From: Promethearchaeota archaeon
GTDB taxonomy: Archaea; Asgardarchaeota; Lokiarchaeia; Sigyniarchaeales; SOKP01
Assembly: GCA_018238625.1 (NCBI GenBank)
Contig: JABCSY010000041.1
Coordinates: forward strand, 1 to 34,231
Length of the DNA stretch: 34,231 nucleotides
Direction: 5' to 3'
Program-made: the position numbers and the translations under genes
In this document: positions 31,093 to 31,767 of the stretch, piece after piece
Numbering within the stretch: the first letter of the stretch is position 1
Layout of the letters: each line of letters begins with the position of its first letter
Notes under the pieces: generated by a model
Told to the model about the DNA's origin: nothing
Database searches by the model: none
The model's input: only the letters and a program-made list of their open reading frames with translations

Positions 31093-31767
31093 TTATTTTA
31101 TAATCAAATTGTAGAATTCGCTTACTTCTTGTGCGATATTTTCTTCAAATCCCGAGTAAAAATGGTCGGCTCCATTAATAATCTTATACTTTTTTGGTTC
31201 GAAATAGAAACTATAATGGTTTTCAAAATTTTCATAGAGCGCTATCGTATCTCGATTACCTTGAATAAACAATTTTGGCTTTTTAGTTTGAGAAAGTTCT
31301 TTATATTTTAACCCCATAAAATCCCAAGGAAAAGAAATCGCACAATAACCAATTATTTTATCAGAAAAATTTACAGCAGAACACCCGATAGCGGCTCCGT
31401 AGGAATAACCACAGATTATTATTTTTTCAATATTCTTCTCGTTTATTAAAAAATCAATACAAGCTTCCACATCGATTAACTCGCCCTTTCCACTAGTATG
31501 ACTTCCTGTTGAACTTCCTATTCCCCTGAAATTAAATCGTAGGCACGAAATCTTATTTTGAACACACATATTAAAAACGCCAGATACGACATTATTGTAC
31601 ATATTGCCCCCATATTTTCCCTTTTTAGGATTTCAAACCCAGAAAAATTGAGGATGTGGGTGACAAATTAAAACAACAGACTGAGATATAATTGTACTCA
31701 ACTGAAAAAACTCGGCTTCAAGCCTAATTTCATTGGTTTCAATAAATATTTTATCAATGCCATGCAT
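31093..31767 (-). CDS. Alpha/beta hydrolase (COG2945-like), spliced: exon 1 31767-31649, exon 2 31615-31093, 213 aa
   Basis: MHGIDKIFIETNEIRLEAEF...VVLICHPHPQ|YGGNMYNNVV...LRFNFRGIGSS.G...GYSYG...QGNRD...GADHF. The track only called the 3' part from 31602. Confidence 0.85.
31616..31648 (-). other. 33-nt bulge-helix-bulge (BHB) intron in an mRNA
   Basis: Insert carries an in-frame TGA (31635-31633). It forms a UCCU/GGGA 4-bp helix with 3-nt bulges CAA and AAA. Excision at standard EndA positions restores HPHPQYGG. Confidence 0.8.

Follow-up and report, generated by a model that had tools for sequence, protein, structure and literature searches.

We propose that a 33-nt insert in an α/β-hydrolase gene of an Asgard archaeon represents a bulge-helix-bulge (BHB) intron, which would be cut out of the mRNA by the splicing endonuclease EndA, with the exons rejoined by the ligase RtcB. 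Cleavage and ligation are predicted from sequence, and we put the probability of this reading at roughly 0.86. The window, by which we mean the whole stretch of DNA analyzed, comprises 34,231 nt of contig JABCSY010000041.1 in the 4.29-Mb assembly GCA_018238625.1 (here G000) of a Promethearchaeota archaeon. The original prediction, made from the window sequence, had placed such an EndA/RtcB-type mRNA intron in a probable Asgard archaeon. The close relatives of the genome are indeed Promethearchaeota, i.e., Lokiarchaeota, and the comparative evidence presented below strongly supports the intron, each prediction open to computation having held.

Results

An interrupted α/β-hydrolase gene

The hydrolase gene occupies positions 31767..31093 on the minus strand and is split by 33 nt at 31648-31616. 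From the ATG at 31767 the frame reads CHPHPQ-FFWV-stop-NPKKGK-YGGNM across the insert, and the same frame runs on to the stop codon at 31095-31093. The insert, which is in frame in the window and carries a TGA at 31635-31633, lies inside the HPHPxxGGxM motif of an otherwise intact gene, and the in-frame stretch that had been described at this place is confirmed on the minus-strand frame. Exon 1 (31649..31767, minus strand) extends from the ATG at 31767-31765 to the first two bases (CA) of codon 40, the predicted intron spans 31616..31648, and exon 2 (31093..31615) starts with the last base of codon 40 and contains YGGNM, GYSYG, GNRD and GADHF. Deletion of 31648-31616 gives an ORF of 213 aa with an intact HPHPQYGGNM loop, in agreement with the predicted full-length enzyme.

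The read-through protein matches the Pfam families Abhydrolase_1 (36.0 bits, cut-off 25.8) and Abhydrolase_11 (33.6 bits, cut-off 27). An uninterrupted orthologue aligns with the solved hydrolases 3trd (E 9.3e-28), 2i3d and 2fuk, gap-free across HPHPxxGGxM, and GYSYG, GNRD and GADHF align with the Ser, Asp and His positions of 3trd, from which we infer the corresponding catalytic roles. Judged by these motifs, the gene is a member of the HPHPxxGGxM group of α/β hydrolases, with GxSxG and downstream Asp and His, and, as regards the gene family, the original view of a gene without connection to RNA processing holds. Gene callers had been expected to miss the intron, and the public calls do split the gene, into separate proteins of 44 and 169 aa (window 31096-31767). 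The 169-aa protein is named 'hypothetical protein' in a Loki MAG, and one public gene call of 224 aa reads through the TGA.

Fold of the insert and its flanks

The insert and its flanks can be folded into the hBHBh' arrangement of EndA substrates. Helix h pairs CCCACA (31655..31660, minus strand; His-Pro-His codons) with UAUGGG (31609..31614; Tyr-Gly codons), with a single mismatch, C31656.A31613. The central 4-bp helix H pairs UCCU (31651..31654) with GGGA (31618..31621), includes one U.G wobble, and is flanked by two 3-nt bulges: CAA (31648..31650), with the predicted cut between 31649 and 31648, and AAA (31615..31617), with the predicted cut between 31616 and 31615. Intron helix h' (31622..31647) consists of an outer stem of five U-A pairs (31647-43/31626-22) and an inner hairpin of 5 bp (31640-36/31632-28) with a 3-nt loop and one G.U pair. 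All pairs and bulges of the original prediction, as well as its C.A mismatch, exist; the U.G pair in H had gone unmentioned.

EndA cleaves each bulge behind its second base and ahead of its third, according to the available portions of PMC2738675. A cut after the second bulge base restores HPHPxxGGxM in 30 of 30 inserts, and in the enumerated cases no other BHB-like combination of position and length does so. A loose BHB definition that just admits the window site has 49,621 matches among ~1.02 billion (position, length) combinations genome-wide, or ~5e-5 per combination, and a single combination restores the motif at the window site. Moving both cuts by one base in either direction gives the same product, because an A flanks both junctions.

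The minimum free energy (MFE) of the region is −17.7 kcal/mol, with a z-score of −1.71, and 9 of 200 shuffles fold equally well. The MFE structure is not the BHB, whose conformer lies 2.1 kcal/mol higher, at −15.6 kcal/mol. Given the modest z-score, folding energy alone would not carry the claim.

Inserts at the same codon in related genomes

The hydrolase gene is present in 39 of the 42 species genomes of genus g1. Of the 40 gene copies parsed in this genus, an insert is present at the same codon in 25 and missing from 15, and the insert-free copies show exactly the predicted exon junction. The 25 inserts represent 21 distinct sequences and are 33 nt (18), 31 nt (4) or 30 nt (3) long. We built a covariance model from the g1 inserts and searched it against the 135 genomes of the family, which returned 30 strong matches (E ≤ 1.9e-7), all in the hydrolase gene: 25 in g1, four among the 10 genomes of g21, and one among the 54 genomes of g22. 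Over all 30 carriers the lengths are 33 nt (19), 32 nt (1, the g22 insert), 31 nt (4) and 30 nt (6). One frameshifting insert (G099) had been overlooked in an order-wide protein search and was recovered by the covariance model. In the other three families of the order, no interruption was found in the orthologues. A contig from run X2 (metagenome, library kind unknown), of high depth and ~95% identical to the window, has an extra A behind 31634 in the intron loop, which gives a 34-nt insert, another frameshifting length.

The UCCU/GGGA geometry with CAA and AAA bulges holds in 26 carriers. A second type of intron occupies the hydrolase site in three g21 genomes (G086, G087 and G091). These inserts are 30 nt long with a 10-bp hairpin, and the central helix is displaced by one base, to CCUC/GNGG, with AAA or AGA as one bulge and AAU as the other. 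The same cut rule again yields the exact junction, with a mismatch in H in two of the three sequences and the first pair of h open. G089, from the same genus, has the 33-nt type seen in the window. The two types within g21 point either to intron sliding or to a separate gain.

Covariation was analyzed on the 21 distinct g1 sequences; these are kin and not independent, and the shuffle counts are accordingly overstatements. In the named structure 84.4% of cells are paired, as compared with 79.9 ± 0.8% in shuffles; its covariation score was reached by 0 of 500 shuffles (overstated by the relatedness of the sequences), and all slid registers score worse. Seven pairs show changes on both sides. Both strands of helix H are invariant in 21 of 21 distinct sequences, and 5 of the 10 h' pairs are compensatory. 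Helix h', which adjoins H directly, is 85.6% paired, and helix h 72.2%. The latter is imperfect: its second pair forms in 0 of 21 sequences and its fourth in 13 of 21, and the facing wobble bases of the Pro and Tyr codons are A-U (9), G-C (3), G-U (1) or unpaired (8). We conclude from these alignments that it is the structure of the insert, not its sequence, that is conserved. The original prediction had named an alignment of orthologs as a check, and the inserts at this site do keep the BHB geometry and covary.

Coding logic and selection on the exons

Of the 30 inserts, five have a length, 31 or 32 nt, that throws exon 2 out of frame. The other 25 keep the frame, and each of them contains a stop codon, be it TGA, TAA or TAG, with two carriers having a pair of stops; the 11 extra residues that an insert would encode are not conserved among carriers. 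From the frameshifting lengths and the stops in all in-frame inserts it follows that the insert cannot be translated. With the insert removed, 29 of the 30 carriers have an ORF of 208-225 aa; the 30th, G013, ends at a contig end, and there the junction alone could be checked.

Exon decay had been named as an outcome that would speak against splicing. No second lesion was seen in the 29 complete carrier copies, and dN/dS among carriers is 0.21-0.42 in exon 1 and 0.10-0.24 in exon 2 (pooled pairwise values; the pairs are non-independent, which overstates the result). In the group with the frameshifting 31-nt insert, the values are 0.36 for exon 1 and 0.16 for exon 2. By these ratios, both exons are under purifying selection. 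Among carriers, the Tyr/Phe-Gly-Gly codons that separate the insert from the next Met differ by synonymous changes, which indicates that they are read in frame, and in the window sequence no start codon lies between the stop of the insert and Met 31602.

History of the locus

Carriers and non-carriers have a common neighborhood, composed of a NikR-like regulator, quinolinate phosphoribosyltransferase, the hydrolase, a Roadblock/LC7 protein and a metallophosphoesterase; a zinc alcohol dehydrogenase, present in some loci, is the only variable neighbor. The shared neighbors thus establish presence and absence of the insert at one orthologous locus. We also considered a mobile cassette and rejected it, finding no homing-endonuclease-like ORF within 1.5 kb at the 30 loci. 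Gene trees were computed without G013 and G039o (truncated), G026o (long branch, left out of the second tree) and two g12 genes. The earliest g1 branches carry the intron, whereas G011, which lacks it, falls within a group of carriers. At least four presence/absence changes are required by well-supported branches. Since the trees mix genera and are weakly resolved, the shares of gains and losses cannot be told from them.

Processing enzymes and RNA libraries

On contigs C58 and C7 the genome encodes two EndA-domain proteins of ~200 aa each (PF01974, 97.7 and 73.8 bits), and on contig C24 one RtcB (PF01139, 556.8 bits). By sequence, the two EndA paralogues fit the broad-specificity (αβ)2 enzyme that PMC5829648 and bioRxiv 10.64898/2026.10.13.758758 describe from Asgard archaea. 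ARAGORN found 28 tRNA genes in this 98%-complete genome and called an intron in 17 of them (a rough count, as some calls are doubtful); these counts suggest that many tRNA genes are too interrupted for recognition.

Among sequencing runs recorded as RNA, none was found to contain the window stretch itself. A 174-nt metatranscriptome contig (run X7) covers 31544-31703 and retains the insert. With 10 differences over 160 nt (~94% identity) it comes from a relative, and no spliced joint was seen at the site in runs X1, X2, X7 and X8. The X7 contig, the sole observation from the RNA side, counts against splicing, with the limits that its library may hold DNA or pre-mRNA and that contigs drop minor forms.

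In the proposed mechanism, the transcript would fold such that the His-Pro-His codons of exon 1 pair with the Tyr-Gly codons of exon 2 (helix h), while the His-Pro-His region would also pair with the 3' end of the intron (helix H, 4 bp). The body of the intron would form hairpin h', and two 3-nt bulges would be presented on opposite strands. EndA, probably in its two-subunit form, would cut after the second base of each bulge, and RtcB would join the exons, giving the 213-aa enzyme with the HPHPQYGGNM loop. Unspliced mRNA would yield only a 44-aa peptide, or an N-terminally truncated protein without strands of the fold.

Alternative explanations

Every carrier has an in-frame stop or a frameshift, as would a gene decaying into a pseudogene or one knocked out by a small insertion. 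Such decay is hard to reconcile with 25 carriers in one genus and five in two others whose exons are open and full length, with dN/dS well below 1 and no second lesion in 29 complete copies, and with an insert that is itself structurally conserved; we consider it highly improbable, and on these comparisons already close to refuted. The ribosome could instead cope with the insert, by readthrough, a variant genetic code or translational bypassing. The window insert, in frame and with a single TGA, and the 224-aa public call that reads through it, would suit this explanation. A variant genetic code is ruled out by the occurrence of all three stops, TGA, TAA and TAG, and readthrough would further have to pass two stops in two carriers; take-off and landing codons differ, the 11 additional residues are not conserved, and frameshifting lengths of 31 or 32 nt occur in 5 of the 30 inserts. 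Mainly through these frameshifting lengths, accommodation by the ribosome appears close to refuted as well, and it is the least probable of the alternatives.

A different possibility is that the insert is kept and the gene is split, exon 2 being translated alone, starting at the conserved Met in GGxM (31602), whether or not the 44-aa chain is made as well. This is quite improbable in our view. An ATG follows the insert in all copies, the public calls list proteins of 44 and 169 aa, and the RNA-library contig keeps the insert, yet Met 31602 is itself a residue of the family motif, found in uninterrupted genes as well, and the Tyr/Phe-Gly-Gly-x codons upstream of it show conservation at the protein level, and so are translated, although the stretch from the stop of the insert to this Met contains no start. 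A split would moreover place the break in the HPHPxxGG loop, which is continuous in the solved relatives, and would leave the covarying BHB of the insert unexplained. Finally, the insert might be excised from the RNA by a route other than EndA/RtcB. The cleaving enzyme is a prediction from sequence, and helix h is imperfect; the geometry and the cut rule are nevertheless exactly those of EndA substrates, in two registers, and a self-splicing intron would have to be far longer than 30-33 nt. No other activity by which archaea would take 30-33 nt out of an mRNA is known to us, and we find such a route very improbable. Excision by EndA and ligation by RtcB is the reading that we retain.

Genome scans and further candidate introns

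A genome-wide BHB scan had been suggested as a further check. The loose hBHBh' scan of G000 returned 49,621 motifs, 1033 of which merge ORFs, as compared with ~848 for random positions and 935-982 for decoy bulge sizes. A strict filter left 5 sites, against 0-3 for decoys, and of these the window site alone was convincing; those at C36, C77, C108 and C175:60919 looked like antisense frames or neighboring genes and were rejected. A relaxed HBh' scan gave 7 sites, against 5-8 for decoys, and all three real-looking cases are among the 7. The scan thus offered no usable enrichment over decoys, while its relaxed form did hold three sites that look real. Because BHB motifs that merge ORFs are not above decoys, the case for the hydrolase intron is built on comparison and not on the motif alone. 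The covariance model found no related intron beyond the hydrolase gene, either in the genome itself or in the 135 genomes of the family; weak matches that we inspected were open coding sequence, e.g., the P-loop region of an ABC ATPase, and were discarded.

The two other real-looking sites are in cobO and in a GH38 gene, and both were missed by the hBHBh' scan because the exon helix is weak there. The cobO gene (PF02572) has its Walker-A loop, GRGK/GKTT, split by 29 nt that shift the frame (G000 C195 5492..5464, minus strand; ~2007..1979 in locus L113). The insert shows an H-B-h' motif, with GGGU/GCCU as H, AAA and AUA as bulges, 8 pairs in h' and a weak exon helix. Among the 37 cobO matches listed in the genus, a truncating or frameshifting form occurs in 7 genomes and an in-frame insert containing TAA or TAG in 6; the other 24 matches have no interruption, and a contig end truncates one of these 24.

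The gene with a GH38 N-terminal domain (PF01074) contains a 30-nt insert with a TGA exactly between THWDRE and WYLPF (G000 C175 42730..42701, minus strand; 1031..1002 in locus L128), found in the relaxed scan. Its H is CGUG/CAUG, and a 9-bp hairpin covaries in relatives. Stops at the insert site occur in 9 of the 32 matches listed in the genus, and G050 and G051 (95% identical) are precisely without the insert. Near the GH38 start in locus L131 (G016:C65), the end of exon 1 (THWDRE) is present in two copies. One leads into the intron and the gene, and the other runs into unrelated sequence that starts with a stop; the second copy looks like a displaced old gene start. Taken together, the alignments suggest that the genome probably has at least three genes with mini-introns, namely the hydrolase, cobO and GH38 genes.

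Discussion

Watanabe, in 2002, reportedly described a BHB intron in the pre-mRNA of cbf5, which encodes a pseudouridine synthase. The cbf5 intron of Desulfurococcales and Sulfolobales is treated by Yokobori 2009 (PMC2738675), and the comparison that follows extends to the available portions of that paper. Both the cbf5 and the hydrolase introns are short, lie in a coding region, and have borders that correspond to cuts between the second and third bulge bases. Both occur in hosts with a hetero-oligomeric EndA (a probable one in the Asgard case), are patchy in related species with apparently precise losses, and sit in a catalytic or conserved motif, so that removal is needed for function. The two cases differ in host and gene, cbf5 being a gene for an RNA-modification enzyme of Crenarchaeota, whereas the gene described here encodes a metabolic-type hydrolase of an Asgard archaeon. 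In addition, most cbf5 motifs are called unconventional in that portion of PMC2738675, whereas those of the hydrolase are mostly strict hBHBh'; and splicing of cbf5 was shown by cDNA, whereas the hydrolase intron is known from sequence. In the cbf5 gene of the window genome, no stop was found inside the TruB_N match.

Asgard genomes have been described as encoding two EndA paralogues that fit an (αβ)2 enzyme with an L1 loop, and their tRNA introns as repeatedly gained, in the available portions of PMC5829648 and bioRxiv 10.64898/2026.10.13.758758. As far as those portions describe them, the tRNA introns share their motif and presumed enzymes with the hydrolase intron and differ from it in substrate, which is tRNA in one case and mRNA in the other. 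Within the available portion of bioRxiv 10.64898/2026.10.13.758758, introns in protein-coding genes are not mentioned and the word 'mRNA' occurs 0 times; the available portion of PMC5829648 is likewise silent on such introns.

In Haloferax volcanii, the HVO_1309 mRNA has a BHB intron in its 5' UTR, and action of EndA on it was confirmed in vitro, as stated in the available part of PMC7714728. EndA would act on mRNA in both systems, in vitro there and by prediction for the hydrolase; the HVO_1309 intron lies in an untranslated leader and leaves the reading frame intact, whereas the hydrolase frame is interrupted. In the HAC1/XBP1 system, a very short mRNA intron is excised enzymatically and independently of the spliceosome, which changes the frame or removes a stop. 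Cutting is done by the endonuclease IRE1, which recognizes two stem-loops; in animals RtcB ligates the exons, and the reaction acts as a regulated switch under stress. The hydrolase intron resembles this system in being a tiny mRNA intron with predicted excision by a protein enzyme and ligation by RtcB, and differs in that a predicted EndA and a BHB stand in place of IRE1 and two stem-loops. Unconventional mRNA splicing of HAC1/XBP1 in eukaryotes is a subject of the available portion of PMC13149111.

The 2020 paper on HVO_1309 (PMC7714728) states, in the portion available, that an archaeal BHB intron in a coding region had been reported only for crenarchaeal cbf5. We found no report of BHB introns in Asgard protein genes in the searchable full-text literature, which lies apart from subscription journals and supplements; crenarchaeal cbf5 was the only coding-region case met there. 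From the comparative sequence evidence, the hydrolase case is very probably an mRNA BHB intron of the cbf5 type, in a phylum and a gene new to this kind. More tentatively, and at a little below even odds, we suggest that this Asgard family keeps a small, turning-over set of tRNA-type mini-introns in ordinary protein genes, where, on a species-level timescale, they would be gained, move by one base, change in length and be lost with precision.

With presence and absence, four lengths and two registers at one orthologous locus, the hydrolase gene amounts to a natural experiment in intron gain, sliding and precise loss. Gene callers fragment such genes, and Asgard proteomes and pseudogene counts would be slightly wrong wherever introns of this kind occur. 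If the hydrolase mRNA is spliced as proposed, enzyme-catalyzed mRNA splicing extends to Asgard archaea, and to a gene without a link to RNA processing. If a population of mini-introns does exist, their splicing might possibly be usable as a switch in the manner of HAC1/XBP1, and mRNA splicing by EndA and RtcB would be an everyday step of gene expression in the prokaryotes most closely related to eukaryotes.
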